From NCBI GenBank assembly GCA_963801475.1, contig CAWDEX010000003.1:11638-75637 (forward strand): a DNA stretch of 64,000 nt, read 5' to 3'. Every line of letters begins with the position of its first letter. Within the stretch, counting starts at the first letter, position 1. Made by a program: the position numbers and the translations under genes. The notes under the pieces were generated by a model that was not told the origin of the DNA, searched no databases, and saw only the letters and a list, made by a program, of their open reading frames with translations. The stretch is from an uncultured Acidobacteriota bacterium. Lineage in GTDB: Bacteria; Acidobacteriota; Thermoanaerobaculia; UBA5066. Of this stretch, positions 1,000 through 43,342 are shown in pieces.

Positions 1000-1126
1000 C
1001 GGCCGGGCTTCTCTTGGTCTGTTCGCGGCCATGTTCCCAGCCCTTCCGGCGATGGCGCAGGTGCCGCTCGGAACCGCTGCCCGTATTGGCGTGCTCGGCG
1101 GCCAGGGTGTCACGAACACGGGGCCT
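1000..1126 (+). pseudogene. 5' fragment of a DUF3494/ice-binding-like secreted protein
   Basis: Signal-like ASLGLFAAMFPALPAMA, then QVPLGTAARIGVLGGQGVTNTGP, matching the LGTAAxFxVLxGxxVTNTGP start of DUF3494 domains. Similarity ends where a repeat copy begins. Confidence 0.55.
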
Positions 1127-1280
1127 GAAAACATAGGTCGCATAGCCGACCGACAGAGGAGCCCTGTCCCTTTCCTGCGGACCTTGAAGGGTCCAGCGGT
1201 TGACAGGCACCCGTCAATCCTCATGGCACGCTTGCACCGCGACGCTTCAGCCGCGTCTGACCGGGTGTTTTACTTCCGGG
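1121..1280 (+). repeat. Dispersed repeat family, degenerate core copy
   Basis: ggcctgaaaacataggtcgcatagccgaccgacagaggagccc...agggtccagcggttgacaggcacccg aligns by eye with 4103-4195. Confidence 0.7.
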
Positions 1281-1415
1281 GCGGCAGGAGGTACGTTCCG
1301 CGAGATCCGGCGCGACTGCCGTCGCCGAAGATTCCGCCGCCTCCGATTCGAGGCTTCGCCAGGACTCGTGCCCGGAGCGCCAGCGATCGAGCGCTTCAGA
1401 ACGGAGAGCTAGAGC

Positions 1416-2603
1416 GTGCCGAAGATCAGGCCAGCGAGATCGGCGAAAGGACGGGCGCGCCCGTCGTATCCGGACCTTCGCGCGCTGTGGGACCGTGTGC
1501 TCCACGAACACGCTTCGCCACTGCGTGTTGGGCTCGCGGTCGGTGTCGGCGTTCTGGTCGGCTGCAGCCCGTTTCTCGGCCTTCAGGTTGCCATTGCGGC
1601 GCTTCTCGCAGTCGCTTTCCGCCTCAACAAGCTGGCGGTGTTCCTGGGGCTCCAGATCTCGGCCCCGCCGCTCCTGCCTCTCGTACTCTTCGTCGGAGCG
1701 CAGCTCGGGGAGCTCGTTCGACACGGCCATCTTCTTCCGATGGACCTCAACGCGCTCCGGACGATGCCGACGAGAGACCTCGTCCACCTTCTCTTCTTCG
1801 ACCTCCTTGCGGGAGGGACATTGCTCGGCCTCGTTCTCGGGACGACACTCGGAACGTTGGCCGCGAGAATAGCGACTCGTAAGGCCCCGCCAGAGTTTCG
1901 TCTCTCCCGCGACGAGATGGTGCAACTTGGGGCTCGACTCCCCGCCTTGCCCTTTCGGCTCCGTCAGTACGCCCGGTGGAAGATCCTTCTCGACCCGGTC
2001 TACGCGGTCGTTGCCTCCCGACTGAAGGGCGTCCGCGAGACCCTTGATCTCGGAGCAGGGTTGGGGATCATGGCCGCGGTTCTCGTTCATCGTGATCCGG
2101 AACGGCGTGTCATCGCCGTGGAGTGGGATGCACGAAAAGTGGCCGGGGCCAGGCGGTTTCTCTCAGGGCTCTCGAAGATCGACGTCGTCTGCGCCGATGC
2201 GCGGCTCTTCCCGACCGCTCCGGTCGAGTCGATTCTCTTGCTCGACGTTCTTCATTACAGCGAACCGGTCGCTCAGGATGCGTGGCTTGGCCGGTGCGCG
2301 GCCGCGCTGAAGCCGGGAGGGCTGCTGATCGTCCGAGAGCATGACGCCTCTTCCAGAGGATCATTGACGGAGGGTCTCGAGCGGCTGACGGTCAAACTCG
2401 GCTGGAATCGAGGCCACGGTGTCCATCCTCGGAGGACGATCGATCTCGTCCGCCGGCTCGAGAGCCTCGGTCTGGACGTCGAGACGATCGACAAGAGTGC
2501 TGCATTGGCCGGTCTCAGGCTGCTTGTCGCGCGTAACTCGTTCGCGGCTGAACGGGTCCTCAGCCCGGTTACCAGTCAGGGGGGACTCGCGCAAAGGGCG
2601 TAG
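1416..2603 (+). CDS. DUF2062 membrane domain fused to class I SAM-dependent methyltransferase
   Basis: N-terminal HASPLRVGLAVGVGVLVGCSPFLG TM region; C-terminal LDLGAGLG SAM motif and LLDVLHY. Confidence 0.85.
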   Translation: MPKIRPARSAKGRARPSYPDLRALWDRVLHEHASPLRVGLAVGVGVLVGCSPFLGLQVAIAALLAVAFRLNKLAVFLGLQISAPPLLPLVLFVGAQLGELVRHGHLLPMDLNALRTMPTRDLVHLLFFDLLAGGTLLGLVLGTTLGTLAARIATRKAPPEFRLSRDEMVQLGARLPALPFRLRQYARWKILLDPVYAVVASRLKGVRETLDLGAGLGIMAAVLVHRDPERRVIAVEWDARKVAGARRFLSGLSKIDVVCADARLFPTAPVESILLLDVLHYSEPVAQDAWLGRCAAALKPGGLLIVREHDASSRGSLTEGLERLTVKLGWNRGHGVHPRRTIDLVRRLESLGLDVETIDKSAALAGLRLLVARNSFAAERVLSPVTSQGGLAQRA

Positions 2604-2670
2604 GTTTCGATTCGTTCGAAAGCTTCGGTTCGAGCCCGGAGAGCCGGGCATGAGGAGGACGGAAGGCAGC
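2555..2670 (+). mobile_element. Highly decayed IS3-like left-end remnant
   Basis: gggcgtaggtttcgattcgttc...cggagagccgggcATGAGG resembles the sequence at 7588-7660 that precedes an IS3 OrfA-like start. Confidence 0.4.
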
Positions 2671-2796
2671 TCGCGTCGATCAGGCGCGGACCGCAGTGGG
2701 CTCGGAAAGACCCGTCTCGAATGGGTCTAGAATCTTGTCGTGGTGGTAAAGGTTGGTTGGTCAAGCGACCCTCAGGGTGGAACCCGCCCGGCGGAA

Positions 2797-3411
2797 ATGG
2801 ATTCGGCCTCTCGTCGAGAGGCGGAGGCGAAGAGCCCGGTCTCTGCCGTGACCGAGAGCCGTCACCGCACCGTCGCCCGCCGGCTGGCGCCGGCCGTCAT
2901 GCTCCTTTGCGTGCTGCTCCCGGTTACCGCACGCGGGCTGGAGGTCAGGATCACTCCCGGCGCCGTCAAACGCGCGATCGAGATGTCCGCTTTTGTCAAC
3001 GGCGAGCTTACCCGGGAAACAGCCAACGGTTTTCTCGGCGTGACCTTGCGCAATCTCCGGGTTCGGTTTGATCCGGCCTCGAGCCGGGTATTGCTTGACG
3101 CCGACGCCGTCACGACTCTTTCCTGGTCTGGCGTCCTTACGATGTCGTTCCGGCCCAAGGTCGCGGGATCGAGGCTGTGGCTCGAGGACATCAGAATCGA
3201 GGGTGTCGATTCTGACCTGGTTCGCAACACCCTTCGCGAGCTCTTGAGCGCAGCGCTGGCAAGTCCCCGCGTCGATCTCGAGGAGAAGGCTCGGTCACCC
3301 ATCAGCGCATCTCCATACTCCCTCCGCATCTCGTCGCCGACGGTGAGAGACCTCCAGGTTACGAGCGCGTACATTCTTCTCCAGCTCGACGGCAGGGTGA
3401 CGGTCGAGTAG
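2797..3411 (+). CDS. Hypothetical secreted protein
   Basis: Signal-like RRLAPAVMLLCVLLPVTARG followed by a beta-rich mature region; start uncertain. Confidence 0.6.
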   Translation: MDSASRREAEAKSPVSAVTESRHRTVARRLAPAVMLLCVLLPVTARGLEVRITPGAVKRAIEMSAFVNGELTRETANGFLGVTLRNLRVRFDPASSRVLLDADAVTTLSWSGVLTMSFRPKVAGSRLWLEDIRIEGVDSDLVRNTLRELLSAALASPRVDLEEKARSPISASPYSLRISSPTVRDLQVTSAYILLQLDGRVTVE

Positions 3412-3608
3412 GTCTGCTTCCCTTCTCGCGATGCGAGGCCGACCTGCTCTCCGAACGCTCGTCCACCGGGGGACGCCCTATGTTCAGGGCCGCAAAGGGG
3501 ATTGCGACGCGTCGTCGCACGGGGAGACGAGCGTTTCGTTGTTGCGCGCCCGGTCGGCGGACGCCCGTCGGCCCCGTCTCAGGCTGCGGCGCGTATACGA
3601 TGTCGCAC

Positions 3609-3908
3609 ATGGGTAAAGAGCCGAAATCCGCCTACGACCTTGCGATGAAAAGGCTGGAGGTCGCCGACCGTGAGTCCGGAGTCAAGGAGATCTCGCTCTC
3701 CGGCGTGCAGAAAGAGGCGATCGCCGAGGCCCGGAGTGTCGCGGCGTCGCGCCTGGCCGAGCGAGAGATCCTCTTTCGCGACGCGATGCAAAAGACCGCC
3801 GATCCGGCCGAGCGCGATAAGGTCGAGGACGAGTACCGGATCGACCGGAAGCGGATCGAGGACGACCGGGACCGCGCCATCGAGTCGATCCGGCGCCGCC
3901 GCCGCTGA
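3609..3908 (+). CDS. Small helical hypothetical protein (PKSAYDLAMKRL type)
   Basis: Charged coiled-coil-like ORF; TACGAT -10-like hexamer 7 nt before the ATG, so possibly leaderless. Confidence 0.75.
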   Translation: MGKEPKSAYDLAMKRLEVADRESGVKEISLSGVQKEAIAEARSVAASRLAEREILFRDAMQKTADPAERDKVEDEYRIDRKRIEDDRDRAIESIRRRRR

Positions 3909-3926
3909 GATATCCGTGGAGGGCTG

Positions 3927-4384
3927 TGTAGGGGTGCCATGGGGATTGCCGGGCGTCTTGTCGGGCAACCCAGGACCACAATGGGGATTGCGGCCCGCAG
4001 CGAAGAAGTGTGGAGTGCCAGTTTGTCGGAGACGACACGCTTCCCGGTGCAGTTCATTCAGAGGCAGTTCCGGGCTGAGAACGGGTTGAATGTTCTCTGT
4101 TTGGCCCGAGAATACGGTTCGTGCGGCCGACCGAGTGGGGAGCCACTTCACGTTCCCGGGAGCCTGACAGGGTTTAGCGGTTTACAGATACCCCGCGACG
4201 ACCTCGCGGGGTCCCGCGTCTAAAGGTCGTGGAATCTGAAGGGTTTCCGCATGGCGTGTCGGCCCTGGCCTGTTCTCTGCCGCTGGAACTGAGAACGCCG
4301 AGTCACCCGCCAGAAGCCTTCTCTGGCCCGGTAGCCGCTCTCTGGCGGCCTGAAATGTCGAGAGCGGCCGAAGGCGGTTAACAG
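3927..4384 (+). repeat. Dispersed repeat family, near-complete copy (left end plus core)
   Basis: Starts TGTAGGGGTGCCATGGGGATTGCC; GGAGCCA 4139-4145; GCGGTTTACAG 4177-4187; hairpin ACCCCGCGA-cgacc-TCGCGGGGT 4190-4212; second GCGGTTAACAG 4374-4384. Confidence 0.85.
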
Positions 4385-4389
4385 GGACC

Positions 4390-4776
4390 TCAGGACTCGG
4401 AGTAAGTCGAGTAGTCCACCGTCAGTTCTTCGTTCGCTCGGATATTCCGCAACGCGAAGAACTCGTCGTTGCTGTCGAACGCGACGTTGGGATGATCGGA
4501 GTGGTTCAGGTACCACGACGGAGTCAGTTGATTGAAGTTCTTCGGACAGCCGTACCGTCCGTCTTCCTTTACGGTGAAATCCTCATAGAACGCGCGTAGA
4601 GCCTTCGGCAACCGCGAGACCACAGTCTCTGGTACCCACCGTATCTGTGTGCTGTCGTGGTTGAAGAGATAGGTGCCTTTCCGAATTCGCTTGATGGCTA
4701 TGACGCCGACTCCGTGAATTCGTGAAGGTGCTAGCCGAGTAAAGACATCGGCGTGAGGCCAGCGCCGTGACCGCAT
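4390..4776 (-). CDS. SET-domain protein (putative lysine methyltransferase)
   Basis: SRIHGVGVIA (GxG motif), YLNHSDHPNV (NHS motif), IRANEELTVDY (ELxxDY); AGGAGG RBS. Confidence 0.9.
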   Translation of the reverse strand: MRSRRWPHADVFTRLAPSRIHGVGVIAIKRIRKGTYLFNHDSTQIRWVPETVVSRLPKALRAFYEDFTVKEDGRYGCPKNFNQLTPSWYLNHSDHPNVAFDSNDEFFALRNIRANEELTVDYSTYSES

Positions 4777-4969
4777 AGGTCGGACCTCCTTCGCGGCGTT
4801 ACGGTGGACTGGAAAGGAGTCTATGCGAGACAGCCGGGTGCTGCGGGAAGGACGCAATGGGAGTTGCGGCAGGGCCGAAAGGGCGACTGGCGCGGGAGGG
4901 AAGGAAAGCGACGATAACCTCGGTGTCGGGAGAATGCCAGTCAGGCCGGACGGAGCCGCGCCATCTCCC

Positions 4970-7366
4970 TCAGCTGCCGTTTACCCCCAGGCGCGCTCTC
5001 TCTTTCCATCGGGCCGCATCTCTATCCAGTTTCATCCTGCCGTAGAGATCGGCGATGAGTCTGTAGGTCACAACGGACGGGTTCTGTCTCGCGAAGCCGT
5101 TGAGGACCTCATGGACCTTCTGCACATCGTATCCCCAGGCATAAAGGAGGCACAGCGACGTGGCGGCGTCCGCATTCGTCGGGTTGAGGGTCAACTCGGT
5201 CAGGAGGTGCCGTTCCGCTTCCTGTCGGAGCTGGGTCCGCCCGGCTTCGTCTTCGATGTTGCGGCTTTCCTGAAGGAGCAGGGCTCCCAGGTAGAAATGG
5301 ATGTAAGGCAAGGTCCGGGGGGAACGCCCCTGGAGTCCTTCGAGGGCTTTCTGGAACAAGGGAAGCGCCTTCGAATACTCCCGGTTTCGATACGACAGGA
5401 CCCCTTCGATGTACGGAACGGCGGCGGGTAGGCCTCGTGCTGCTCGAGTTGCCGCCTCTCGGGCGGCTTCGGGTCGTCCTTCGGTGACTTCCAGAAAGGC
5501 GCGCCGGGCCTCCGCTTCATCCGGCTTTTCGAAGGCGGCTATTTCCAGCTCTTTCCTGGCTTCCTCGGGTCGCTTGAGCTGAACGAGGATGTCGACGAGA
5601 TCAAAGCGTTGCCGACTTCTCTTCGGTGCTATCAGAAGGCTCTGTTTCAGCGCGTCCGCTGCCTTGTCGAGGTCGCCAAGGCGCCGGTATGTTTCGCTCA
5701 GCTCGTCCCACGCGTCGATCATTCGAGGACTGCCCGCCAGGACCTTCTGGAGAATCCCGGCCACCTTGGTAAAGAAGAAAGCGCTCTTCAGCCTCATGGC
5801 CTGGCGGTAGAGGACCAGATCTCCGATACGATCCTTCGGATCGGGAGCCGCGTCGTCCCCGCGTGAATCCAGCGTCCCGGAGCCGATATAGCCGAGGGCC
5901 CGGAGCTTCTTGACCTGTTCCTCGTCGACGGTGTCCGGGGCCTTGAGCACCGTTTGCCCCACGTAGCTCCTCAACCCCCTGTGCATCTTCTCGTACTCGA
6001 GGGCTACGGACCGGGAAAGCCCCGCGCTCGGCGACACGTCCGAAGTGCGCTGGGAGAGGATGTTGTGTACCTCCCCTGGGTCCTGCCGGACATCGTAGAG
6101 TTCCTGCCGCGGAGCGAGAATGAAGCTGTACTGAGAGCCCGTCAGGCTGAAGAGTTCTTTCCAGCCGAAGTGCAGGCGGCCGTACAGGCTCTCCGCATAT
6201 ATCTGGCGGTCTTCGGGGAACTCCTGGCCTCGAAGCGCCGGAATCAGCGACTTCCCCGGAAGCTGCGAATTCGGCGGGAGACCGGCCCAGTCGAAGATGG
6301 TCGGTGCGACGTCGATGAGCTGCACCGGAGCCTGAACGCGACTCCCGCCCTTCTGGCTCCCGGGAAGCTTGATGATGAGCGGGACGCGCGTCACCTCCCG
6401 GTACAGGAAGACCCCGTGGTCGGGTTCACCGTGGTCACCGAGGGCTTCGCCATGGTCCGAAAGCAGGACGATCAGGCTCGAATCGTAGAGGCCCAGCTTC
6501 CGTAGCCCCGCAAAGAGGTTGCCCACGATCTCGTCGCTGTACATGACTTCCCCGTCATAGGGAGCCCTGTCCGGCCGCAGGAATCGGGTGGGTGGCTTGT
6601 ACGGCGTGTGAGGTTCGTAAAAGTGGACGAACAGGAAGACGGGACCCTTCTTGCCCACCGAGGATCCGGATCCCGTGGATTGTTTGGTCAACCAGGCCAG
6701 AGCCCGGCCGAGGGTCTCAATTCCGTCTCGTTGGACCTCCGTGACAGGAACCTGGGCATCGGTCACTTTCATGTCATCGTCGAACCACTCGAAACCCTGG
6801 GAGATTCCCGTCGATGAGTGCAGCACGTACGCGGAGACGGCCCCGCCTGTGGAATAGCCGGCTTGCTTCAATTCCGTCGCCAGCGTTCTGGCGCCCCTGT
6901 CGACCTGGAAACCAATGTTGTTTCGCACTCCATGCACAGGAGGCAGCAAGCCGGTGAAGATGGATGCGTGGGCCGGGAGCGTCAGTGGAACGTGGGTGTA
7001 GCAGTTCTCGAAGACGACGCCGCCGCGGGCCAGTTCGTCGATGGCGGGCGTCTGGATCTTTCCATAGCCGTAGATCGGCAATCGGTCAGCCCTCAACGTG
7101 TCGATGGAGATGAGGATGACCGGCGTGCGGCGAGCGGCTGCACCGTACAGGCGAATGAGCGTCAGAGTGAAGAATCCCAGGACCAGGACGAGGAGCGCAG
7201 CCAGAGCGACTTTCCGGGTTCTCGGCCGGATGGCACGGATAACACGCTGGAGGGCGCCCGTCCGTTCAGGGTGGCGCCGGGTGTGTACGGAGCTTTCTGC
7301 ACGGGGCTGGGCGCGCCCGGGCTCATCCGGGGTGCGATTCTTCGTGCCGCTTCGTTTCCGGGCCAT
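4970..7366 (-). CDS. Sulfatase-like hydrolase/transferase with C-terminal TPR repeats
   Basis: ILISIDTLRADRL, PLTLPAHASIFTG, HFYEPHTPY, LSDHGE; N-terminal TM; TPR-like helices after LRALGYI. Confidence 0.9.
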   Translation of the reverse strand: MARKRSGTKNRTPDEPGRAQPRAESSVHTRRHPERTGALQRVIRAIRPRTRKVALAALLVLVLGFFTLTLIRLYGAAARRTPVILISIDTLRADRLPIYGYGKIQTPAIDELARGGVVFENCYTHVPLTLPAHASIFTGLLPPVHGVRNNIGFQVDRGARTLATELKQAGYSTGGAVSAYVLHSSTGISQGFEWFDDDMKVTDAQVPVTEVQRDGIETLGRALAWLTKQSTGSGSSVGKKGPVFLFVHFYEPHTPYKPPTRFLRPDRAPYDGEVMYSDEIVGNLFAGLRKLGLYDSSLIVLLSDHGEALGDHGEPDHGVFLYREVTRVPLIIKLPGSQKGGSRVQAPVQLIDVAPTIFDWAGLPPNSQLPGKSLIPALRGQEFPEDRQIYAESLYGRLHFGWKELFSLTGSQYSFILAPRQELYDVRQDPGEVHNILSQRTSDVSPSAGLSRSVALEYEKMHRGLRSYVGQTVLKAPDTVDEEQVKKLRALGYIGSGTLDSRGDDAAPDPKDRIGDLVLYRQAMRLKSAFFFTKVAGILQKVLAGSPRMIDAWDELSETYRRLGDLDKAADALKQSLLIAPKRSRQRFDLVDILVQLKRPEEARKELEIAAFEKPDEAEARRAFLEVTEGRPEAAREAATRAARGLPAAVPYIEGVLSYRNREYSKALPLFQKALEGLQGRSPRTLPYIHFYLGALLLQESRNIEDEAGRTQLRQEAERHLLTELTLNPTNADAATSLCLLYAWGYDVQKVHEVLNGFARQNPSVVTYRLIADLYGRMKLDRDAARWKERARLGVNGS

Positions 7367-7544
7367 GGAGCGCTTTCTTCTCGCAGGTTTCGAGCGGAAT
7401 CGAGAGGTCAAGCTCTGGGAGGTAACTCTGTTCCCGTGGCTGTCACTTGATTGGCTCGCGATGACGCGGCGTGTCCCGCCCCTCAGTCACCGACAGGATT
7501 GAATCGGAGCCTCCTACAAGCGCCTCGGAATGCTAGCACCCGGG

Positions 7545-7710
7545 GGGGTCTTTTCCCGTTTCTTGGTCCAGACCGACTCTAGTTAGGGGGCGTAGATTTC
7601 GGTTCGTTCCTAGGCTCCGGGGGAGCGTGGAGAACGGATCGTTGAGGAAAAGCCGGTTCAGCGAACAGAAGATCGCACGGGCCCTGGGACAGGGTGAGGC
7701 CCGGGAGCTG
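7545..7710 (+). mobile_element. IS3-family left-end remnant with OrfA N-terminus
   Basis: IR-like cttttcccgtttcttggtcca, then GGAG RBS and LRKSRFSEQKIARALGQGEA (compare IS3 OrfA MRKSRFSEEQI); the rest of the transposase is absent. Confidence 0.6.
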
Positions 7711-7894
7711 GGGAGTGCCGCGGGGATCGGACGGGCGGCCGGGTGGACCGAACGGGATGCGGCGGGATCGTCGGGACATCCGAGGCGACCGGACTGGAAT
7801 GAGCGCATGACGAGCCCTCGTCGGGCCAGAATGCCAGCGCCCCCGGCCCGAATCGGGGCTACTGCCGATGGCGGGAAACCGGCTCCAGGGGGTG

Positions 7895-7960
7895 ACCGCC
7901 GCCGGCTATTCCCAACGCGCCCTTACAATACCCCGCAATTCCCAATGCATCCCTCCAACT
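7895..7960 (+). repeat. Right-end-type fragment of the dispersed repeat (two inverted end motifs)
   Basis: cgccggctattcccaacgcgcccttaca and ccccgcaattcccaatgcatccctcc resemble 18268-18290 cgccggcaattcccatcgcgc. Confidence 0.6.
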
Positions 7961-8010
7961 CCGCGGAGGTCAGCGAGTTTCCTGGCTGAGTCCCGGGGTC
8001 ACCGCCCTGC

Positions 8011-10239
8011 TCATCGGGTGTCGGGCGCACGGTTCGGCCGGTCGCAGGCCTCCTTGTCCACAGACCACCACGCCATGTAAGCGGTGAAGAAGGTCAGGCG
8101 GGAGTCCGGGTTCTGCACGTCCCCGTCCCCGCCATAGTTGAGGGTGAAGGGCTTTCGCGTAATGGTCAGGTGCAGGTGATTCGGGTTGCCGTCGGCGGGC
8201 AGGAGTGTTTCCGTGATCTGCACTCCGGACCACCTCGGGTCCGCCGGCTCGGCCTCGCGTGCCGTCTTGAGGCGCGCCGCCGGACAGGGGCGGGCCGGCG
8301 GCCATACGTCGATCTCCAGCGATCTCTCGGCGAAGACCGGTGACGCGACGATCTTCGTCACGACGGCCGGTGCCCCGCCCGTCAGGGCCCGCCAGTTTCC
8401 TGTCAGCCGGAGGGGCCTGTTCCAGGTGGCGCCAAGCACCGGCGCGTAGTCTGCGGTCTGAAGGTAGGAACTCTCGAGAAGGCTGGCCGGGTGAAGCTCC
8501 GCATGCCAGTCGGGATGACCGCAGTCGATGATCCAGAGGCCGCGTACGACGGCCCGGTCCCCCGGTTCGGGGCGAAAGCCGACCGGGTAGTACCACTGCT
8601 CCCCTTCGACCCCGAGCGCACCGCGCAGGTCTGCAACCTGGTTTCCTTGCCGGTACTCGCTGTGCTTGGACTGGCAGTCACCCCCGTCGCGGTCGTGAAG
8701 CATCGACTCGTCACGCGCCAGAAGGTGCCGGAAGTCGGCATCGGGGAGAAGGTTGATCTCCCAGTCGGCGCATTGCTGGCCGTTGTCGGCGGTCGAGAGA
8801 TCCGGGCAGTTCTGGACGGCGTCGTTGTGCGTCATGACGTCTGAATGCACCCCGATGTAACGGCCGTCCGGCATGCCGTTGTGGTCGCCGCTCCAGTCGC
8901 CTCCCGAGAGAAAGGAGTTCGTCACGAGACCTTCGGCGCTGAGGAAGGCGTGATCTCTCACGACCGTCCACTCCGGATCGCCCCAGTGAATGCACCCGTC
9001 AGAGGTTACGGGCGCATGCTTGATCTCCCACTTGCAGATCGCTCCGGACTGTACGATCCCGGCGCCGGGGGGGTCGGCCGTCGGAAAGCCGGCGAGATTC
9101 CCGGCCGTCCATTCGGCCGGCGGGACCCGTCGGGGCGCACACACCTTGATCCAGCGCGGCGCGCTCGACCGCCACGACGTTCCCGCGCCGCCGCAGAACC
9201 CGGGCAGAAACGTGGGCCTCCAGGAGGCCGGATCGCGGTTGAGGGCTTGCAGGTCGACGAAGCCGACGCCGGAGAGCGGGAGATCCCAGGGCCTCGCCTG
9301 CCAGTCGCGCTGCGGGCTCTTGTCGAACGCGAGATCAGCCGGATACCAGATCGGAGCTTCCGTCGGCGTAAAGGCTAGATAGATGCAGCCATCCGCGTGC
9401 ATCTCGGCGGAATTGAGGGGCCGGTTGCTGAGCGTCGTCTTCCCGTCCGGCGAACCATCCTGGAATATCTGGAAGTGCGTGATGGCGGCCCCGTGGGCGT
9501 CCGGCGTCATCGGAAGCCCGAAGGGCACTTCGGCCTGCGAGCGCAGAAGGGTCACGACCCGGGCTAGCTCCGGCACGTCGGTGGCAACCGGCGTCTTCGA
9601 GGAGGCAGTCCACGGCCCGCAGTCGCGGCACGAGGGGGTGGCGCCGCGGTCAATGACGAGGTCCACGACGGCCTTGTAGACCCCCGCGCACTGGTTGTTG
9701 ACGCCGTCGTCATGATTCCAGTACCCGTTGTCGCCGATGCCGCCGTCATCCACGTAACCGAGGGCGAAGTGGCCGGCGACGGGCACGACGAAGGAAGGAC
9801 CGATCCAGTGCTTTAGCGTCTGAGGGTTGTTGTCGCCCGTGACACTTGCGATCTGCACGGTCCCGTAGTACTGGGAGTCGAGGTGTCCGTTGCCGTCGTC
9901 GGGGTCGACGTACCGCTTCCACGTCGATCCCCAACCGCCGGTCTGAACGCAACCTGAGGCCGAGAGCCGGACGACGTCGCCCGGGTTCAACCGGATGGCG
10001 GTGTAGTCGGTGAGCGACCGGTCGACGGAGGGAAACTCGATGTGCCACGCTTCCCGCCCGGGCGCGGGCTTCGTGCAGGTGATGACGTCCGCTCCGTGCG
10101 GGTAGTGGTCGTTGTGGCCGGGCTGGAAGCGGGGGGGCGGCGGCGTGTCGCAAGCGTCGGCGAGCGCGGGGCCCCGGCCGAGAAGACAGGACAAGACCGG
10201 GACTGCGGCGATAAACCTGAGAACGAGAACTCGTCTCAT
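8011..10239 (-). CDS. Large secreted Cys-rich hypothetical protein (possible LecA/PA-IL-like N-terminal domain)
   Basis: Signal peptide; IRLNPGDVVRLSASG...LGYVDD..GDNG; C-terminal GDRAVVRGLWIIDCGH..HAELHP. Confidence 0.75.
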   Translation of the reverse strand: MRRVLVLRFIAAVPVLSCLLGRGPALADACDTPPPPRFQPGHNDHYPHGADVITCTKPAPGREAWHIEFPSVDRSLTDYTAIRLNPGDVVRLSASGCVQTGGWGSTWKRYVDPDDGNGHLDSQYYGTVQIASVTGDNNPQTLKHWIGPSFVVPVAGHFALGYVDDGGIGDNGYWNHDDGVNNQCAGVYKAVVDLVIDRGATPSCRDCGPWTASSKTPVATDVPELARVVTLLRSQAEVPFGLPMTPDAHGAAITHFQIFQDGSPDGKTTLSNRPLNSAEMHADGCIYLAFTPTEAPIWYPADLAFDKSPQRDWQARPWDLPLSGVGFVDLQALNRDPASWRPTFLPGFCGGAGTSWRSSAPRWIKVCAPRRVPPAEWTAGNLAGFPTADPPGAGIVQSGAICKWEIKHAPVTSDGCIHWGDPEWTVVRDHAFLSAEGLVTNSFLSGGDWSGDHNGMPDGRYIGVHSDVMTHNDAVQNCPDLSTADNGQQCADWEINLLPDADFRHLLARDESMLHDRDGGDCQSKHSEYRQGNQVADLRGALGVEGEQWYYPVGFRPEPGDRAVVRGLWIIDCGHPDWHAELHPASLLESSYLQTADYAPVLGATWNRPLRLTGNWRALTGGAPAVVTKIVASPVFAERSLEIDVWPPARPCPAARLKTAREAEPADPRWSGVQITETLLPADGNPNHLHLTITRKPFTLNYGGDGDVQNPDSRLTFFTAYMAWWSVDKEACDRPNRAPDTR

Positions 10240-10406
10240 TTTGCGCCCTCAGGCGAGCGTACGCTTTCTGCGGGAAGAAAGTCCATTCACGTCCCCTTCC
10301 CCGGCACCGGTGAACGCGTCTGCCCCGGGGAACGCGATGGTTGCGAATCCGGGCGACACGCCGATGGCGCCCACGCCACCCCGGTCTCCTCACTGTCGGC
10401 GCCGCT

Positions 10407-10570
10407 GCCCGGAGTCGCCGGTGGTCCCGAGAATCCGGTTAGCGCGGCCGACCGGCTGCGGAGCCACTACTCTCCCCCGCGAACTCAAGGAGGGTCCGCG
10501 GTTAACAGGAACCCGACGACGACCTCGCGGGGTTTCGTGCCTGAAGGGCCGGACTCAGAAGGACTTCCGG
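10407..10570 (+). repeat. Dispersed repeat family, core copy
   Basis: ccgagaatccggttagcgcggccgaccggctgcGGAGCCActactctcccccgcgaac...GCGGTTAACAGgaacccgacgacgacctcgcgggg...tcagaaggacttccg. Confidence 0.85.
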
Positions 10571-10594
10571 CTCAGGAGCGGCCGATTCTCTTGG

Positions 10595-11490
10595 CTACCG
10601 CGGCGCGTCGTTGTTCGGCGGCGAGATCGGCGCCACGCTTCCCTGCCACTCGACCGTGATGGTGCCTCCGAAGCTGCCGTCGGTGAATTTCTTCTGGAGG
10701 AGGCGGAAATTTCTGTCATACGAGACCTGGAGGGCAGGAAGCGGGAGGACTGCGGTGTCGTCTGGCGGCACCGGGAACATGTCCGCACCTTCCAGGATGC
10801 CGAAGAGCGGCGCCACCGTGTAGGTCCCGTAGCAGTTCTGGCCGCCGCTGATCGTCGCGATGAACGGGATGTCCCCCGCCGACGCCGCGCCAAGTGCGAG
10901 GCCGATCGCGCCCTGTCGCGAGTTCGTGTCCACTTTCGCTCCCGACGCCAGGACGAGGGGGAGCGAAGCCCCTCCCCCGGAGGCCGGCGCCGCGAAGGTG
11001 CCGTGGCCGCGGAGGGTCACGGTGCAGCCTCCCGCGGCCGCCGAGCCGGAGCCCGTCAGGGGCATGGAGGAGTCCCTGGTCAGGAAGATCCCACGAACCG
11101 GGAACGATGGCGACGCCCCCGGCTTCTCGCGGTAGCTGCCGACGTCCGCGCGGAGGCGAATCGTCCCGTTGCCCTCGAACTTCCAGCCCGAGAGGCCCAT
11201 CGCGTTCGACCACAGGTAGTGGAGAGGGATGTCCCACTCCGTGAGCTGGCGCGCGTTGCTCTTTCGCTCGGCCCCCATCTCTCCCGGAACCACGACGTAG
11301 ACGTCCCCGTTCCCGTCGAGCCGTCGTACTGGTTGTGCCAGGCGACCGACACTTCGACCCGCCGCTGCGAGAGGAGGAGCGTCGTCGCCGCCGGTGCGGA
11401 CGAAGACACGACGGCCGAGCCGAGGACGAGCGTCACGGCCGCGACGAGACCCGTCCTCGAGAACACCTGGTTCGAGTTCCTGATCTTCAT
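10595..11490 (-). pseudogene. Secreted protein split or internally deleted (frame change near 11290-11310)
   Basis: Frame 1: signal peptide plus RRVEVSVAWHNQYDGSTGTG. Frame 2 begins DVYVVVPG..RKSNARQLTEW (IPT/TIG-end-like) and runs to 10595. Confidence 0.55.
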
Positions 11491-11605
11491 GAACTACCCC
11501 CCAACCCGGTCACTGCCCGCTTCGGCAACAAGCATGGAAGTGACAGCCCAATAATGGAACATACGATCGGGTGGCGGGCGTCACTGCCGGGCTCATGCCG
11601 GGTGC

Positions 11606-11660
11606 CGTAGGGACTCGATGGGAATTGCCGGGGCTTCTCTCGCCAGGAAACCAGGACCCG
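11606..11660 (+). repeat. Left-end fragment of the dispersed repeat
   Basis: GTAGGGACTCGATGGGAATTGCCGGGC..ccaggacc resembles 3928-3977. Confidence 0.6.
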
Positions 11661-11879
11661 AGTTTCCTCTGTTCCGGCTGACCAGGGTGGTCTTCCACCC
11701 AGCGCCGGCCCGGGGTGCGAGGAGACGCGGTCGACTGAGGCACCCGGGCGTCTGTTCAGGCAAGCCATGGGGTTCTGGCGAGGCCCAAGGAGGTCGGCCT
11801 CCTCGCCCCGTGGCCCCCCCTGCCTCCCGCGGGACTAGAATTCGTGCCGGCTCTCCGGAAAGGGCTGATCGAGAAAAGG

Positions 11880-14665: not shown

Positions 14666-14668
14666 AGG

Positions 14669-16921: not shown

Positions 16922-16981
16922 GGGGTCTCCCGTCCAGCTTAGGCCCGAAAGGGTCCGACTCAGTAGCAGAGGTAGGAGAAG

Positions 16982-17266
16982 GAGTTCTGACCCGAGAACG
17001 TCTCGAACTTCTCAGTTCGGCCGAGGAACTGAGTTCGCGTGGCGGATCGACTGCGGAGCCACTCTTCTCCCCCGCGAACGTCTGGCAGATTCGCGGTAAA
17101 CAGGAACCCCGCGATCGTCTCGCGGGGTTTCGCGTCTAAAGTTCGTGTAGTCAGAAGGGCTTCCGCGCGGGGCGAGGCTCGGCCGGTTAACAGCCCGCGC
17201 CGTGGCGCGATCGGACTCAGGTCTCTGCGCGCCGCAGCCTCCGGCAGGTCTCATTGCGCCCCGACA
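16982..17266 (+). repeat. Dispersed repeat family, core plus right end
   Basis: GGAGCCA 17055-17061; GCGGTAAACAG; hairpin AACCCCGCGA-tcgtc-TCGCGGGGTT; second CGGTTAACAG near 17184; GACTCAGGTCTCTGCGCGCCGCA; ends CATTGCGCCCCGACA. Confidence 0.85.
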
Positions 17267-17302
17267 GTGATCGGTGTCGCGTCGACCGGCGGGACGGCCT
17301 CT

Positions 17303-17761
17303 CTAGTGGCGCGGCTCCAGGACGATCTCCCGCGCAAGACGATCGCCGATGATCTCGCGGATCTCGAGGCGGTCCTTGTATCCCTGCATCTGCTTCTGGT
17401 CGTCACCGCTGATCTTCTGGGATAGGGCGTCTGCCTTGACCTCGTTCGCCTCCATCGTGCCGAGGTCCTTGAACTCGGTCATCAAGATGATGTTGAAGTC
17501 CTGAGTGCCATGGCCTTCGGTGGTGAGCACCTTCCACGAAAGGATCAGCCCCTCCTTCTTCATCGCCTCCTGTTCCGCCTTCCAGGTGGTGGCGATGTAG
17601 TTGAGGTACGCCGTGTCCATTCCCGGCTTGATGCGGATGAACGCCATCGTCCAGACCGATCCGGGGCGGTACGGGCGCTTGACCTGCGCGTAAGCGGAAA
17701 GGCCTCCGAAGAGGAGTGCGGCCGCGATCGAGGCAACGACGATTCTCTGTTTCAGCTTCAT
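17303..17761 (-). CDS. Secreted hypothetical protein (NIPSNAP/dimeric alpha-beta barrel-like)
   Basis: Signal peptide AYA|Q; IRIKPGMDTAYLNY...KKEGLILSWKV; AAGGAG RBS. Confidence 0.8.
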   Translation of the reverse strand: MKLKQRIVVASIAAALLFGGLSAYAQVKRPYRPGSVWTMAFIRIKPGMDTAYLNYIATTWKAEQEAMKKEGLILSWKVLTTEGHGTQDFNIILMTEFKDLGTMEANEVKADALSQKISGDDQKQMQGYKDRLEIREIIGDRLAREIVLEPRH

Positions 17762-34900: not shown

Positions 34901-35758
34901 ACTCATGACGAGCGGCTCTTCGCACAGGCGGCAGCCGCTCTGGGCTGCTCGCTGCTCGCCCTGCGCGAGAAGGCGAACGCCCAGGGGCTGCTCGACATGG
35001 GCGCCGACCCGCGCTGGCTGCCGGGCTACGTCGACCCGGCCGGCGGCGAGGCACTGGAGCAGATGGAGAAAGAGCTGGGGGTGGTCCTGGGCGACCTCCC
35101 GCCCCCCGGCCTGGACGTGGCCCAGCTCCTGCGCGAGAAGAAGATCCGGGGCGCCGTCGTGCTCGGCGAGGACCCGTTGGGTGCTCACGGCTTTCCGCAG
35201 GACCTGCGTGACGGCCTCCTGGCCGCCGACTTCCTGCTCGTGGGCGACCTGTTCCTCACGTCCACGGCCGCCGTCGCCACCGTGGCGTTACCGCTGTCGA
35301 GCACGGCGGAAACGAGCGGCACCATGACCAACGCCGAGCGCCGCGTGCAGGGGCTGCAGCGCGCAGTGCCCCCCGCGGGCGGGATGGAAACCTGGGAGAT
35401 CCTCAGCCAGCTCGGCGGCCTGCTCGGTTACCGGTTCAAGATGAAGTACGGGTCGGTCCAGGACGTGACCGCGGAGATCCGACGGGTCGCGCCGATCTGG
35501 GCGGGGCTCGATCCCGGCTCTGCGGGTGCTATCTGGGACACGACCGGAGTCAAGCCGCCTAGGGTCCCGTTCACCGGGCTCGGGGAGGCGTTCGTCCCGG
35601 TGCCCACTCTCGCGCTCGATACGCTGGAGGACCGCTTCGCGACCTGGTTCGCCAGGATTTTCAAGAAAGCCCGCCGGGATCGGCCCGTCGACCAGCGGTT
35701 CGTCTCGCCGAACAGCCGTGTCGCCGGTTACTCATCCGGCGAATCCGAGAGGGTCTAG
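31932..35758 (+). CDS. Fused [2Fe-2S]-GltD/NfnB-like FAD/NADP domain + 2x[4Fe-4S] + NuoG/Fdh-like domain (StnC-like), frameshift in G-run at 34149-34155
   Basis: IPTLCH..C..C..C; PCQLACP, CGRVC; VVGAGPAG; VVGGGNTAVDCAR; CVLCGRCVRIC; CPYCSAGC..GNHCRKGRFG in the next frame; TNEEIYLAQKLAR..HNVTS lacks the Mo-ligating Cys/Sec. Confidence 0.88.
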
Positions 35759-35830
35759 CGGGTTTCAGACGCCCCGCAGATCCTTCGCGGGATCTGGTGC
35801 CCAAAGGTCCTGGAATCAGAAGCGCTTCCG
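35680..35830 (+). repeat. Dispersed repeat family, degenerate core overlapping the 3' end of the StnC-like gene
   Basis: cggttcgtctcgccgaac..agggtctagcgggtttcagacgccccgc..tcgcggg..aaaggtcctggaatcagaagcgcttccg aligns with 4115-4250. Confidence 0.7.
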
Positions 35831-35915
35831 AGATGCGCGTCGATAGCGACCGCGGTCAGAACGGGAAGCCGACTGTGGCGGGAATGCTGACGAGACTCGT
35901 GCCCTGCACCTTGAA

Positions 35916-41792: not shown

Positions 41793-42032
41793 ATGTCCGA
41801 CCCGAAGATCGCTGCCAAGCAACCGATTGTCGTCAGGCTGGAAGCCGGCAGGACATACGCCTGGTGCCGTTGCGGCCTGTCCAAGGGGCAGCCGTTCTGC
41901 GACGGGACCCACAAGGGCTCCGGTTTCACGCCGCTCGTCTTCAAGGCGGAGGATACGAAAGACGTCTGGCTCTGCCAGTGCAAGCACACCGGACATCCTC
42001 CGGCGTGCGACGGCACCCACAAGACTCTCTGA
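41793..42032 (+). CDS. CDGSH iron-sulfur domain protein (two motifs)
   Basis: WCRCGLSKGQPFCDGTH and LCQCKHTGHPPACDGTH. Confidence 0.93.
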   Translation: MSDPKIAAKQPIVVRLEAGRTYAWCRCGLSKGQPFCDGTHKGSGFTPLVFKAEDTKDVWLCQCKHTGHPPACDGTHKTL

Positions 42033-42059
42033 CGCTCAGGTGCCGTTGCGATTCCGGGC

Positions 42060-42227
42060 GTGAAGATTGACGGCGTCCTGAAGATCACCCGGATCCGGGT
42101 CGCCTGCACGCTTTCGGTCCCACCGGGGATGGCCGACGACGCCCGCGAGGCGCTCAAGATGGCCATCACTCAACGCCCCGCCGCCATGAGCGCGATGGGG
42201 TGCATCGAGATCGTCGATTCGGCGTAG
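42060..42227 (+). pseudogene. OsmC-like protein C-terminal remnant
   Basis: Manual translation VKIDGVLKITRIRVACTLSVPPGMADDAREALKMAITQRPAAMSAMGCIEIVDSA; the conserved CP reads RP; no N-terminus. Confidence 0.5.
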
Positions 42228-42521
42228 ATCAGTGAGCTTCCGGCCTGAGGCTCGCGGCCGGGCCTCGGGCCATGGCGGGATTCCCTCCGCCGGAGGCGGG
42301 GGTGTCCGCGATTCATGATCCAAAGGCCATTGGGCGGCCTCCGGCCCGGTTCGGGCGCGAGGCGGCCGCGAGCGGTTCGGCCTGCGGCGACGGGGTCGAA
42401 GCTCTGATGTCGTCCCATCAGACCTGGATCGACCGATTCCGTAGAATGACGCCTCCGGAGCTTTTCCGTCTTCAGGTCTCTCGCGCTCGCCGGGTGGTAC
42501 GCTGAACGAAGGAGGCCGATC

Positions 42522-43277
42522 ATGCGCTTTCCTGTTTTCGCAGCGGCAGGCGCTGTGGTTCTCGCCGCCGCCTTGAACGCGCAGCAACCCCAGCCGGCGC
42601 AGCAACCCCAGCAGCCCCAGCAACCGCCGCAAACCCAGGCGCAGGGAGCCGGAGGATCGCAGGCCCAGGGCTTTCAACCGCCATACACCATCTATCGCGT
42701 CGACCTCATCCCCGCCGGCTTCGGGTTCGCGATGGAGGAGCCGAAGCTGGAGGGTGACGTTTGGGTCTTCCGCAGCCTGCCGGACAAGACTCTCGAGCGG
42801 GTTCCCAAGGCAAGAGTGAAGTCCGTCAGCCGGTGGTCGACGGACTACAGCAAGGAGGTCGTCTACCAGGTCGAGTTCCTTCCCACCGGCGGCGTCCTCG
42901 CCCGCGAGGAGCCGGTGAAGAAAGGGAGGCTCTACCTGATCAACACCTGGAGGCAGGGAACGCTTCTCTCCATGCAGGAGGGGGACGTCAAGAGCATCAC
43001 CCGACTGACGGGGTTTCCGGCGTTCAAGGCCGAGATGAAGGAGCTGGGCGTCGTCGTCCTGGAGACCGAGACGACCCACGCGGGCTTCAAGCAGACGGGA
43101 GATACGCCGGCACCGGGCGCGGCGTCAGCGGGAGCCCCGTCCACGAGATCGGGCCAGGGCAACTGGACGTACCAGGGGACTCCGGGGGCGTCGGACGCAT
43201 ACGCGCCGGGGAACGCGACGGTCGCGAAGCCGGGCGACACGCCGATGATGCCCCAGCCGACGCAGCCTCCTCACTAA
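42522..43277 (+). CDS. Secreted hypothetical protein with Gln/Pro-rich linker
   Basis: AAGGAGG RBS, signal peptide, QQPQ repeats. Confidence 0.8.
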   Translation: MRFPVFAAAGAVVLAAALNAQQPQPAQQPQQPQQPPQTQAQGAGGSQAQGFQPPYTIYRVDLIPAGFGFAMEEPKLEGDVWVFRSLPDKTLERVPKARVKSVSRWSTDYSKEVVYQVEFLPTGGVLAREEPVKKGRLYLINTWRQGTLLSMQEGDVKSITRLTGFPAFKAEMKELGVVVLETETTHAGFKQTGDTPAPGAASAGAPSTRSGQGNWTYQGTPGASDAYAPGNATVAKPGDTPMMPQPTQPPH

Positions 43278-43286
43278 CGCGCCTCG

Positions 43287-43342
43287 GCCCGGAGCCGCCC
43301 GGAGGCCGGAGAACGCGGCTCGCACAGCCGACCGGGTGTGGT
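43287..43342 (+). repeat. Dispersed repeat family, short core fragment
   Basis: gcccggagccgcccggaggccggagaacgcggctcgcacagccgaccgggtgtgg aligns with 10407-10462. Confidence 0.6.

Follow-up and report, generated by a model that had tools for sequence, protein, structure and literature searches.

Tandem stacking of mobile elements at one site is known from CIMEs and from the ICE/IME arrays of Streptococcus, where the recombinase of a helper element is needed. The known cases of CIME accretion involve tyrosine or DDE integrases and one or two elements.

The ssrA islands of Dehalococcoides, in the account of McMurdie et al. (2011; PMC3146451), lie in tandem 3' of a single-copy tRNA-like gene, within 100 kb. 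They are bounded by 20 bp direct repeats of the ssrA 3' end, and a conserved motif unlike the gene sequence is found just 5' of each repeat. A serine recombinase of ~540 amino acids is encoded on the reverse strand beside attL; about half of the islands (15) are without an integration module and were proposed to be cis-mobilizable. The attP and attB sites of large serine recombinases (LSRs), as described by Rutherford et al. (2013; PMC3783163), measure ~47 bp and consist of imperfect inverted repeats around a central dinucleotide. Relative to attP, attB has its outer motif shifted by 5 bp towards the centre, and the recombinase gene adjoins the site.

We have analysed a repeat family in a stretch of 64,000 nucleotides (the window) from an uncultured Acidobacteriota bacterium. 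Our verdict is that cassettes without an integrase are stacked at tRNA-Asn and that the repeats are their attachment-site junctions, which makes the locus a variant of the tandem tRNA/tmRNA-linked islands. More specifically, and with a probability of roughly 0.65, they would be the junction units of a tandem mobile-cassette array on a single tRNA-Asn(GTT), with exchange taking place in GAGCCA by an LSR acting in trans.

Repeat units and the tRNA-Asn gene

We scanned all 4.21 Mb of the window's own genome (G000, with contigs C1, C2 and C3; other G numbers denote relatives) with an nhmmer profile of four copies. Every one of the 11 matches with E < 0.05 is on the + strand of its contig, as the initial annotation had noticed for the window, and the ordered sequence blocks that it listed were recovered in alignments. 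Its count of at least eight core copies stands only in part: five of the eight are solid units and two are half units, but the copy at 43287 is not significant, its likeness coming mainly from an adjoining 94-nt paralogous gene start (10301-10394 versus 43182-43275, 77%). The genome scan added copies beyond the window at C3:1338, the tRNA-Asn locus, C1:1551447 and C1:2286230. The features of the window are listed in Table 1.

Table 1. Repeat units, cassettes and border motifs in the window (positions are those of the window).
Position	Strand	Feature	Evidence
1122..1218	+	Diverged unit: partial left arm, core GGAGCC ~1159, degenerate right arm	nhmmer E 1.4e-10, profile 60-156
1159..4140		Cassette: DUF2062-methyltransferase gene and unassigned ORFs	Pfam
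4045..4400	+	Full unit: left arm 4045-4139, core GAGCCA 4140, hairpin 2 ~4190-4212, right extension to ~4400	nhmmer E 2.4e-62; aligns with tRNA-Asn locus
4140..10461		Cassette: SET-domain gene, sulfatase-TPR gene, 742-aa ORF (all on - strand)	Pfam
10396..10578	+	Unit: left arm shortened, core 10461, right arm	nhmmer E 6.2e-46, profile 32-215
10461..17056		Cassette: 232-aa ORF, radical-SAM protein, spermidine-synthase-like membrane protein	Pfam
16962..17265	+	Full unit: core 17056, short right extension ending in 25-nt motif 17241-17265	nhmmer E 2.6e-59; motif scan
17056..17996		Smallest cassette: single 152-aa ORF (17303-17761, -), no Pfam family	ORF list, Pfam
17901..18294	+	Full unit: core 17996, right extension ending in 25-nt motif 18270-18294	nhmmer E 2.4e-58
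17996..19496		Cassette: single 230-aa ORF (18390-19082, -)	ORF list
19437..19496	+	Left arm alone, core decayed	nhmmer profile 8-67; E 0.044 genome-wide, 9e-4 regional
35696..35837	+	Right-arm-only relic (trailer hairpins), core degenerate, outside array	nhmmer E 1.1e-10, profile 72-213
43287..43342	+	Weak left-arm fragment beside paralogous gene start, not significant alone	nhmmer E 1.7
3928..3956, 11607-11635, 17810-17838, 19134-19162	-	25-29-nt motif (GTAGGG...GGAATTGCCGG) at cargo/unit borders	
7902-7926, 17241-17265, 18270-18294	+	25-29-nt motif, further copies	

The initial annotation had overlooked that its GGAGCCA block is the 3' end of tRNA-Asn(GTT), and that the blocks 3' of GGAGCCA are a copy of the trailer of this gene. 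A unit is composed of a left arm (~100 nt), an 11-nt stretch equal to the very end of tRNA-Asn and a trailer copy of ~110-330 nt with two hairpins. The core, CTGCGGAGCCA, is identical to the final 11 nt of the tRNA, and GAGCCA is without variation in 20 of 20 aligned units; unit-to-unit identity is ~62-80%, both within and between genomes. In the alignment the unit continues ~220 nt past the blocks first listed, to a total of ~480-500 nt. Unit lengths overall are 215-500 nt, and the unit as a whole is not palindromic. The 25-29-nt motif, which is also repeat family D17, had all five of its genome matches within the C3 array in a fuzzy scan.

The tRNA-Asn(GTT) gene at C2:956092-956166 is the sole tRNA-Asn gene in the genome. 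Homology between the units and this locus begins at the last 11 nt of the tRNA and extends 330 nt downstream, and here the tRNA stands where the other units have their left arm. Contig C2 stops 327 nt past the gene; we infer that its end is joined to the start of C3, which would place the G000 array downstream of tRNA-Asn. At the other side, the array probably terminates distally with the isolated left arm. The gene after it (19516-21291, -) shows core-like divergence, with a third-position identity of 68.8%.

Three relatives (G002, G004 and G005) have tRNA-Asn followed by co-oriented units, and arrays of relatives hold 5-9 such units spanning 30-45 kb. The gene is contiguous with downstream repeats in the same orientation in these three as well as in G050, G058 and the metagenome locus L184. 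Strong matches (score at least 25) keep to one strand per region (8/8 in G000, 9/9 in G002, 7/7 in G003, 6/6 in G004); the opposite strands found in one of the four metagenome loci having two units count against our reading. Upstream of the tRNA, the order of TyrRS, prephenate dehydrogenase and a GluQRS-like gene is kept in G000, G002, G004, G005, G050, G055 and G058, and the content downstream differs among the same genomes.

A candidate recombinase and its predicted site

No recombinase (PF00589, PF00239) was found in the arrays of G000, G002, G003 and G004, and none in or near the arrays among the nine genomes checked. With the LSR query used, the eight genomes of the window's genus gave no homologue, and G000 has only a broken serine recombinase, away from the array. 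This counts against our reading, and catalysis by an LSR is accordingly proposed on the strength of the relatives. There, a large serine recombinase gene adjoins the core or the tRNA-Asn 3' end, in metagenomes and in a sister genus. In 10 of 122 metagenome loci an LSR gene in antisense orientation, complete or as a 3' part cut off by the contig end, comes directly after the core; the full-length LSR of L159 matches Resolvase (1e-24), Recombinase (4e-17) and Zn_ribbon_recom (3e-8). In both G042 and G036 the tRNA-Asn 3' end is adjoined by an LSR with 45% identity to that of L159, and GGAGCCAC plus trailer recurs 25.2 kb and 20.3 kb downstream, respectively.

The putative attP of G042 has 13-bp inverted repeats with the centre GG/GA. 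Inverted GTTCGCG/CGCGAAC boxes lie on either side of the core: of 31 genome units, 25 have GTTCG at -23 and 14 have CGAAC at +19 (a further four within 1 nt of that position). The predicted site has the form expected for an LSR, 40-50 bp with inverted half-sites around a central dinucleotide. At tRNA loci GTTCG stands at -18 (8/8), versus -23 in the units; if we assume that GTTCG is the zinc-ribbon motif, this 5-bp shift would agree with the attP/attB geometry of serine integrases as described by Rutherford et al. (PMC3783163). The L159-type site counts against our reading, as an inverted repeat is not clearly present on the right side of its core.

Most likely, the units are attachment sites for a serine recombinase that is now missing from G000. 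In the proposed layout, units and cargo would alternate behind tRNA-Asn, beginning with a unit, the whole series pointing the same way as the tRNA. The left arm (~100 nt) would represent the conserved right-hand terminus of an integrated element, and the right arm the copy of the tRNA trailer, with two hairpins and then ~220 nt closing in the 25-29-nt motif. The two trailer hairpins most likely end tRNA transcription. Strand exchange would occur within GAGCCA, about GG/GA, by an LSR like that of the relatives. Since G000 is without an intact LSR, the enzyme would have to work in trans on its cassettes, which would therefore be orphans, like cis-mobilizable elements. Under the strict serine-integrase rule two sites that each have two P-type halves should not recombine, which counts against our reading and leaves the many trailer copies unaccounted for.

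We speculate, with the odds against it, that a serine recombinase drives the array as a functioning, integron-like platform for gene capture, each integrase-less cassette carrying a left arm and a copy of the tRNA-Asn trailer. Insertion of such a cassette would restore the tRNA terminator and a usable target beside the tRNA, and cassettes could therefore stack without limit. If so, they would pass among Acidobacteriota species whenever a recombinase-bearing helper element is present.

Cassettes and their borders

The segments between the units are accessory and horizontally acquired. Third-codon identity is 82-96% in eight cargo genes versus 58-77% in four core flank genes upstream of the tRNA, and the order of cargo blocks differs from genome to genome, shuffled between species. 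The DUF2062-methyltransferase cassette is common to G002 (87% nucleotide identity, 82% at third positions), and the radical-SAM cassette has 5.1 kb in common with G004 at 93.6%. The sulfatase module is 95% identical to that of G003 and 93.5% to that of G004, in different contexts; its flanking arms are only ~74% identical against ~95% for the cargo, which counts against our reading.

G002 and G003 share a module of 1179 nt at 98.5% identity. In either genome its ends fall at -1 and +5 relative to the core, and the neighbours on both sides are unlike. Breakpoints were tallied over 158 loci for blocks at least 96% identical. Metagenome loci were chosen by a pattern that fixes left arm and core; the sampling for the tally is thereby biased, as is the left-side spacing count among metagenome loci, whose 139 of 146 is circular. 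High-identity shared blocks stop most commonly in GAGCCA or the next 30 nt. In this biased sample, 31 of 113 right block ends fall at 0..+9 (exact +5, +6, +7 and +8) and 38 at +20..+29; 5 of 61 left ends fall at -1 and 23 at -110..-81. The clusters at +20..+29 and -110..-81 lie off the core and count against our reading, as does one well-aligned border between G000 and G004 where ~90% identity runs across the core and homology is lost in hairpin 2, at ~+75. Contigs from public runs gave, for an excision circle or empty site, only unreliable joints with 20-26-nt sides.

These off-core borders favour an explanation without a dedicated recombinase, in which the units go back to old duplications of the tRNA-Asn trailer region and homologous recombination has removed, added and reshuffled the cassettes, with exchange between direct repeats of 0.2-0.5 kb following DNA uptake from related species. 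It is also favoured by the nine genomes in which arrays and surroundings are free of recombinases, and by arms that are sometimes far less similar than the cargo they enclose. We nevertheless consider it unlikely, as units that are ~62-80% identical are a poor substrate for homologous recombination, 31 of the 113 right ends lie within 4 nt of the GAGCCA end, one module is core-bounded on both sides and LSR genes adjoin exactly the same core in related DNA. We therefore prefer exchange by an LSR acting in trans. A site-specific recombination site had been the first option of the initial annotation, and it gains from the identity to the tRNA 3' end, the position of the array 3' of the tRNA, the breakpoints at the core and the serine recombinase adjoining the core in related DNA.

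Other explanations and comparison with known systems

The units might instead be structured-RNA genes or cis elements (a small RNA derived from the trailer, or a module copied from gene to gene that serves as terminator or insulator), conserved for an RNA role. Pairing in the two hairpins holds in 84.7% of cells versus 30-50% with partners slid, seven pairs have changes on both sides versus 3.3 in shuffles (3 of 500 reach 7), and G-U pairs agree with the + strand. The covariation of the hairpin base that had been reported earlier is borne out (pair 183/206 is AU in 10, GU in 5 and GC in 1), and the same hairpin module sits, as the relic at 35696-35837, at the 3' end of a nuo-like gene cluster. 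However, RNAalifold gave 21 pairs in 263 columns with a covariation term of ~0, the left arm is conserved in sequence and not in pairing, and Rfam returned 0 matches at the gathering score and two sub-threshold matches at E up to 1. An RNA role would moreover leave the tRNA link, the co-orientation and the exchanged cargo unexplained. Nothing is supported past the two trailer hairpins, and we regard this option as very unlikely. The initial annotation could place the unit in no named family; Rfam bears this out, yet the unit is of a known kind, namely the att repeats of tRNA-targeting islands.

Slightly less probable again is a non-autonomous, MITE/REPIN-like transposon bracketed by inverted 25-29-nt motifs, with its transposase elsewhere. 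Several units do have a - oriented motif 65-160 nt before and a + oriented one ~215 nt after them, the motif is an abundant repeat of ~55 nt in G010, and G000 has three Y1 transposase genes. Yet the units are restricted to one strand downstream of tRNA-Asn, the tRNA replaces the left arm in the tRNA-locus copy, and many units are missing one or both flanking motifs. No target duplications were seen at the units, and collections of plasmids, phages and viral contigs gave no unit match. Of the earlier suggestion of a non-autonomous mobile unit, what remains is that the cassettes between the units are without recombinase; the unit itself is not MITE-like because its copies are clustered, co-oriented and tRNA-linked.

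An integron-type attC cluster without integrase, served by the G000 integron integrase (TIGR02249, 459 bits versus a cut-off of 265; C1:1030288-1031250, one attC-like site nearby), is scarcely credible, given that a simple R''/R' palindrome scan (a crude finder) gave 0 attC-like sites in the 34.5-kb array versus one at the IntI locus, that the units measure 215-500 nt and are overall not palindromic, attC sites being imperfect palindromes of 57-141 nt with R''/R' boxes, that IntI is located on another contig than the array, and that IntI is found in 12 of 16 unit-bearing (2 broken) versus 31 of 47 unit-less genomes (n = 63) and so shows no association.

Read as integrase-less cassettes stacked at tRNA-Asn, the array resembles the ssrA islands, as McMurdie et al. 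(PMC3146451) describe them, in its tandem arrangement at a tRNA(-like) gene, its 3'-end direct repeats, the motif 5' of the repeat and the recombinase-less members. With respect to that description, the target is tRNA-Asn instead of tmRNA, the repeat measures 215-500 nt (left arm, 11-nt tRNA end and trailer copy) instead of 20 bp, recombinase genes are absent from every cassette of the genus's four arrays, the cassettes are small (0.9-7 kb) and the phylum is Acidobacteriota. Compared with the LSR sites described by Rutherford et al. (PMC3783163), conservation around the predicted sites reaches ~100 nt leftwards and 330 nt rightwards, far past what such an enzyme needs, and the recombinase reading frame crosses the site. 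Relative to CIMEs, up to 9 units are stacked here, the likely helper is a serine recombinase and this helper is absent from the host genome. Like integron arrays, the locus is a one-directional row of small, mostly single-operon cassettes with recombination sites between them and content that varies and is shared among species; unlike them, it is without attC structure and without an adjoining IntI/attI, its genes lie on either strand and its platform is a tRNA gene.

The unit and the tRNA-Asn locus

A direct-repeat scan of the window revealed 158-nt copies at 4093, 10414, 17009 and 17949 (62–70% identity) and a fifth, hairpin copy at 35758. An nhmmer profile of the four best copies was run against the whole genome of the window's organism (G000, 4.21 Mb in three contigs, 69% G+C). 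The ordered blocks described in the initial annotation are present and the repeat family is real. Each of the 11 matches at E < 0.05 is on the + strand of its own contig. The copy that the annotation had placed at 43287 is not significant (E 1.7); its weak resemblance is explained by two − strand genes that have in common a 94-nt start region (77% identity) and the adjoining left-arm piece. The many short GC-rich direct repeats of a spermidine-synthase-like gene (families D3, D5, D7, D9–D11 and D16) belong to a low-complexity Ala/Gly/Leu-rich membrane region and are unrelated to the unit family.

Positions of the repeat copies and of associated features (C1–C3, contigs of G000; G003, a relative; L numbers, loci)
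Feature	Position	Strand	nhmmer E
Four seed copies	window	+	2e-62 to 6e-46
Unit copy	window 1122	+	1e-10
Unit copy, left part only	window 19437	+	0.044
Right-arm relic	window 35696-35837	+	1e-10
Unit copy	C3:1338, outside the window	+	3e-24
Copy at tRNA-Asn locus	C2:956156	+	3e-28
Unit copy	C1:1551447	+	1e-9
Unit copy	C1:2286230	+	6e-7
Motif CCGGCAATTCCCATTGCGCCCCTAC, cargo/unit borders	window 3928-3956, 11607-11635, 17810-17838, 19134-19162	-	
Motif CCGGCAATTCCCATTGCGCCCCTAC, cargo/unit borders	window 7902-7926, 17241-17265, 18270-18294	+	
tRNA-Asn(GTT) gene	C2:956092-956166		
Shared 94-nt gene start	window 10301-10394, 43182-43275	-	
Spermidine-synthase-like gene	window 14669-16921		
nuo-like cluster	window 24017-35758		
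Trailer-like sequence by nuo-like cluster	G003:C4:19010-19239		
Fragment ACCTACCCGCGGAGCCACTCTT	G003 C19:1123770-1123870 (region position ~28840)		
Insertion at GAPDH gene	C1:1551300-1551760 (L003:2304-2762)		
Integron integrase gene	C1:1030288-1031250, outside the window (L148:9288-10250)	-	
attC-like site	L148:8443-8502		
Tyrosine recombinase and Y2 transposase	L203:1230-3341		

The copy at the end of C2 is a gene, called by ARAGORN as tRNA-Asn(GTT); it is the sole tRNA-Asn among the 49 tRNAs of G000, and the contig ends 327 nt away. The GGAGCCA block is its acceptor 3′ strand plus CCA. Homology between tRNA locus and units begins with the final 11 nt of the gene (CTGCGGAGCCA, the core) and spans the entire 330-nt downstream flank (the trailer). 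In the units a left arm of ~100 nt, with repeated GAGAAC/GTTCTC boxes and a stretch GGTTCG..GCCGACCGA, stands in place of the tRNA body, so that left arm, core and trailer copy (right arm) give a full unit of ~480–500 nt. The trailer copy comprises, in order, two hairpins, the conserved inverted repeat GCCGCTCTC/GAGAGCGGC, two GGTTAACAG boxes and a 25–29-nt motif (CCGGCAATTCCCATTGCGCCCCTAC). ARAGORN calls no tRNA at any unit, and the left arm was rejected as a decayed tRNA; a dif/Xer-like site within the unit was sought by eye only and none was seen.

All five matches to the 25–29-nt motif in a scan of G000 lie within the array and none on the other 3.9 Mb, which rules it out as a genome-wide REP there. 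A promoter (sigma-70 or sigma-54) was weighed by eye and discarded. In the relative G010 the motif is part of an abundant dispersed repeat of ~55 nt, many copies of which lie at contig ends and some of which are tandem.

Two further sequences recall parts of the unit. A fragment in G003 (ACCTACCCGCGGAGCCACTCTT) retains part of the tRNA T stem plus the core; ARAGORN calls no tRNA there, and the fragment may represent either a decayed tRNA-Asn or a displaced tRNA end of greater length. A right-arm-like copy on C1 sits inside a ~320-nt insertion close to the end of a GAPDH gene (3′ side). The insertion is bordered by 69-nt direct repeats of the gene end (84% identity) and leaves a GAPDH tail of 28 codons that has a ribosome-binding site of its own. 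It resembles a scar left by a related element with a different target.

The initial annotation had also considered a structured RNA. The window has no Rfam match at gathering score, and a search of 16900–19600 by E-value gave two sub-threshold matches only, at chance level. RNAalifold predicted 21 pairs from 20 units with a covariation term near zero. Only the two trailer hairpins are well kept: 84.7% of their cells are paired (30–50% with partners slid), seven pairs are changed on both sides (3.3 in shuffles) and the G-U pairs agree with the + strand. Beyond these hairpins the structured-RNA reading is not supported, and we read the two hairpins as the terminator of tRNA-Asn, to be supplied by each incoming element. 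Elements with a large serine recombinase (LSR, see below) supply a different hairpin in the same place. The full unit has no match in plasmid or phage collections, and a pattern scan of IMG/VR gave none.

An array of probably exchanged cassettes behind tRNA-Asn

The trailer was BLASTed against 30 relatives and the matching regions were fetched. Six of the seven other genomes in the genus carry the unit family, as do some of those in two further genera. Behind tRNA-Asn lie eight co-oriented units spanning 42 kb in G002, five spanning 29 kb in G004, and units likewise in G005, G050 and G058; G003 has eight units on a single strand. In every region all strong matches fall on one strand (8/8, 9/9, 7/7 and 6/6 in the four main genomes). 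Upstream of the tRNA lie housekeeping genes in an order kept across the family (uridine kinase, TyrRS, prephenate dehydrogenase and a GluQRS-like gene). The tRNA thus accounts for the same-strand rule, and the replichore, against which the initial annotation had proposed to test strand bias, does not. In G000 the adjacency of tRNA and first unit is deduced from the relatives because the two are on different contigs.

The genes between units lie on either strand and are accessory by Pfam: MacB-type efflux genes, encapsulin, alpha/beta hydrolases, sulfatases, radical-SAM enzymes, an ECF sigma/anti-sigma pair, a PIN toxin and outer-membrane barrels, joined in relatives by IS3-type transposases. 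ORF-level blastp gives the cargo block order A-B-C-D-E-F in G000, C-E-F-A in G004 and A-B in G002. Between species, third-codon-position identity is 82–96% for eight cargo genes and 58–77% for four core genes of the upstream flank, high GC3 inflating both sets equally; a sulfatase gene just beyond the last unit is core-like (68.8%). These comparisons of sequence point to recent exchange of cargo between species.

A nuo-like gene cluster in the window has counterparts at 88–92% identity in G003, G004 and G005, genomes that carry a second, paralogous cluster as well (72–79% identical). Immediately upstream of it, G003 has trailer-like sequence, and in G000 the right-arm relic follows the cluster; the cluster may once have been cargo itself.

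Joints, candidate enzyme and site geometry

The clearest joint is that of an outer-membrane-protein cassette common to G002 and G003 (1179 nt, 98.5% identity), whose ends lie at −1 and +5 relative to the core in both genomes, with different neighbours on either side. Metagenome contigs scanned with a left-arm-plus-core pattern gave at least 122 loci, 115 of those listed being true units by nhmmer (an earlier, looser pattern had returned only 13 true members). We compared 158 loci with a core all against all and retained blocks ≥ 96% identical; the left arm and core of the metagenome loci are fixed by the selection pattern, which shapes the sample of breakpoints. Right block ends fall at 0 to +9 in 31 of 113 cases, the exact positions +5, +6, +7 and +8 being the end of GAGCCA(C), and a further 38 at +20 to +29, the end of the conserved CGCGAAC box. 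Left ends fall exactly at −1 in 5/61 and at −110 to −81, the outer edge of the left arm, in 23/61; the latter we read as cargo differences between related elements. Two cases run counter to this simple picture, however. At one border, G000 and G004 remain ~90% identical across the core and diverge only once hairpin 2 is reached. A sulfatase module has ~95% identity among three genomes but flanking arms of only ~74% identity; its own edges coincide with the 25-nt motif and, in G000, with a GGAGCC hexamer. Contigs of four DNA sequencing runs gave short pieces whose joints have 20–26-nt sides and were uninformative on excision.

Neither tyrosine (PF00589) nor serine (PF00239) recombinases are encoded in the arrays of G000, G002, G003 and G004, nor close to the units in five further genomes. 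The integron integrase of G000 is intact (TIGR02249, 459 bits, cut-off 265), but IntI homologs, present in 43 of 63 family genomes, show no link to the units, and a simple, crude scan found no attC sites in the array; on this evidence it is rejected as the enzyme. One 60-nt attC-like site lies ~790 nt from the IntI gene. A tyrosine recombinase is rejected likewise, there being none in or near the arrays and a single case in one of the 122 listed metagenome loci. There, a 287-aa enzyme is directly followed by an IS91-type Y2 transposase (PF04986, 4e-61), and the pair probably represents an insertion sequence carried within a cassette.

Clustering of all ORFs around the metagenome units led to a recurrent LSR family (Resolvase 1e-24, Recombinase 4e-17, Zn_ribbon_recom 3e-8). 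Its gene, or a contig-truncated 3′ part, lies directly behind left arm and core on the opposite strand in 10 of the 122 listed loci. The reading frame passes through the core into the left arm, and a hairpin with a T5 run stands immediately after the core, where the trailer would be. G042 and G036, of a sister genus, encode an LSR 45% identical to the metagenome enzyme that abuts the 3′ end of tRNA-Asn, convergent with the tRNA, and GGAGCCAC plus trailer recurs 25.2 and 20.3 kb downstream, respectively. By its sequence this layout is that of a textbook attL ... attR pair. LSR homologs are absent from all eight genomes of the window's genus when searched with the metagenome query; the sole serine recombinase of G000 is broken and lies near another tRNA.

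An attP reconstructed from the two ends in G042 contains perfect 13-bp inverted repeats (CTATCTGAGCCAT / ATGGCTCAGATAG), which are spaced 20 bp apart and have GG|GA of the core at their centre. The window units have a similar symmetry around the G of GAGCCA (GTTCGCG at −23, CGCGAAC at +17 to +23). GTTCG is at −23 in 25/31 genome units and CGAAC at +19 in 14/31, within 1 nt in four more; in tRNA-Asn, GTTCG (T loop) is at −18 in 8/8 loci. Serine integrases are described by Rutherford et al. (PMC3783163) as having an outer motif shifted 5 bp inward in attB relative to attP; that GTTCG is this outer motif is our assumption.

Proposed mechanism and comparison with known systems

The repeat feature is real and the explanation is coherent. 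Most likely, the family's elements use serine recombination to enter tRNA-Asn at GAGCCA, and every new insertion displaces older elements away from the tRNA. Most members would have lost the recombinase and need a helper, and homologous recombination between units may contribute to shuffling. The model does not account for the origin of the full 330-nt trailer copy in cassettes, nor, under the strict pairing rules of serine integrases, for the pairing of sites with two P-type halves or the multiplication of sites with a full trailer copy.

Uncultured soil and wetland Acidobacteriota would thus possess a cassette-exchange system with an integron-like outcome, a tRNA gene as its base and, most likely, a serine recombinase. 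It would account for the 45-kb variable region and its cargo of efflux pump, encapsulin, sulfatases and radical-SAM enzymes. On this reading, a series of long conserved ‘non-coding repeats’ can represent stacked attachment sites served by a helper enzyme that the host lacks. The candidate recombinase of the type encoded in full length at metagenome locus L159, with its candidate attachment sites, could be of use in genome engineering if confirmed.

A survey of literature listings found no description of such an array in Acidobacteria, which is weak evidence of absence. The closest described system is the tandem ssrA islands of Dehalococcoides (PMC3146451), in which the 3′ end of a single-copy tRNA-like gene is repeated, a serine recombinase lies on the reverse strand beside attL, and many islands have no serine recombinase and are proposed to be cis-mobilizable. 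Common to both are direct repeats of a gene 3′ end, a reverse-strand serine recombinase by attL (here in relatives) and recombinase-free islands. Unlike those islands, the array described here has a tRNA-Asn target, a very long unit and small cassettes, and its enzyme is missing from the entire host genus, as judged with the LSR query in eight genomes.
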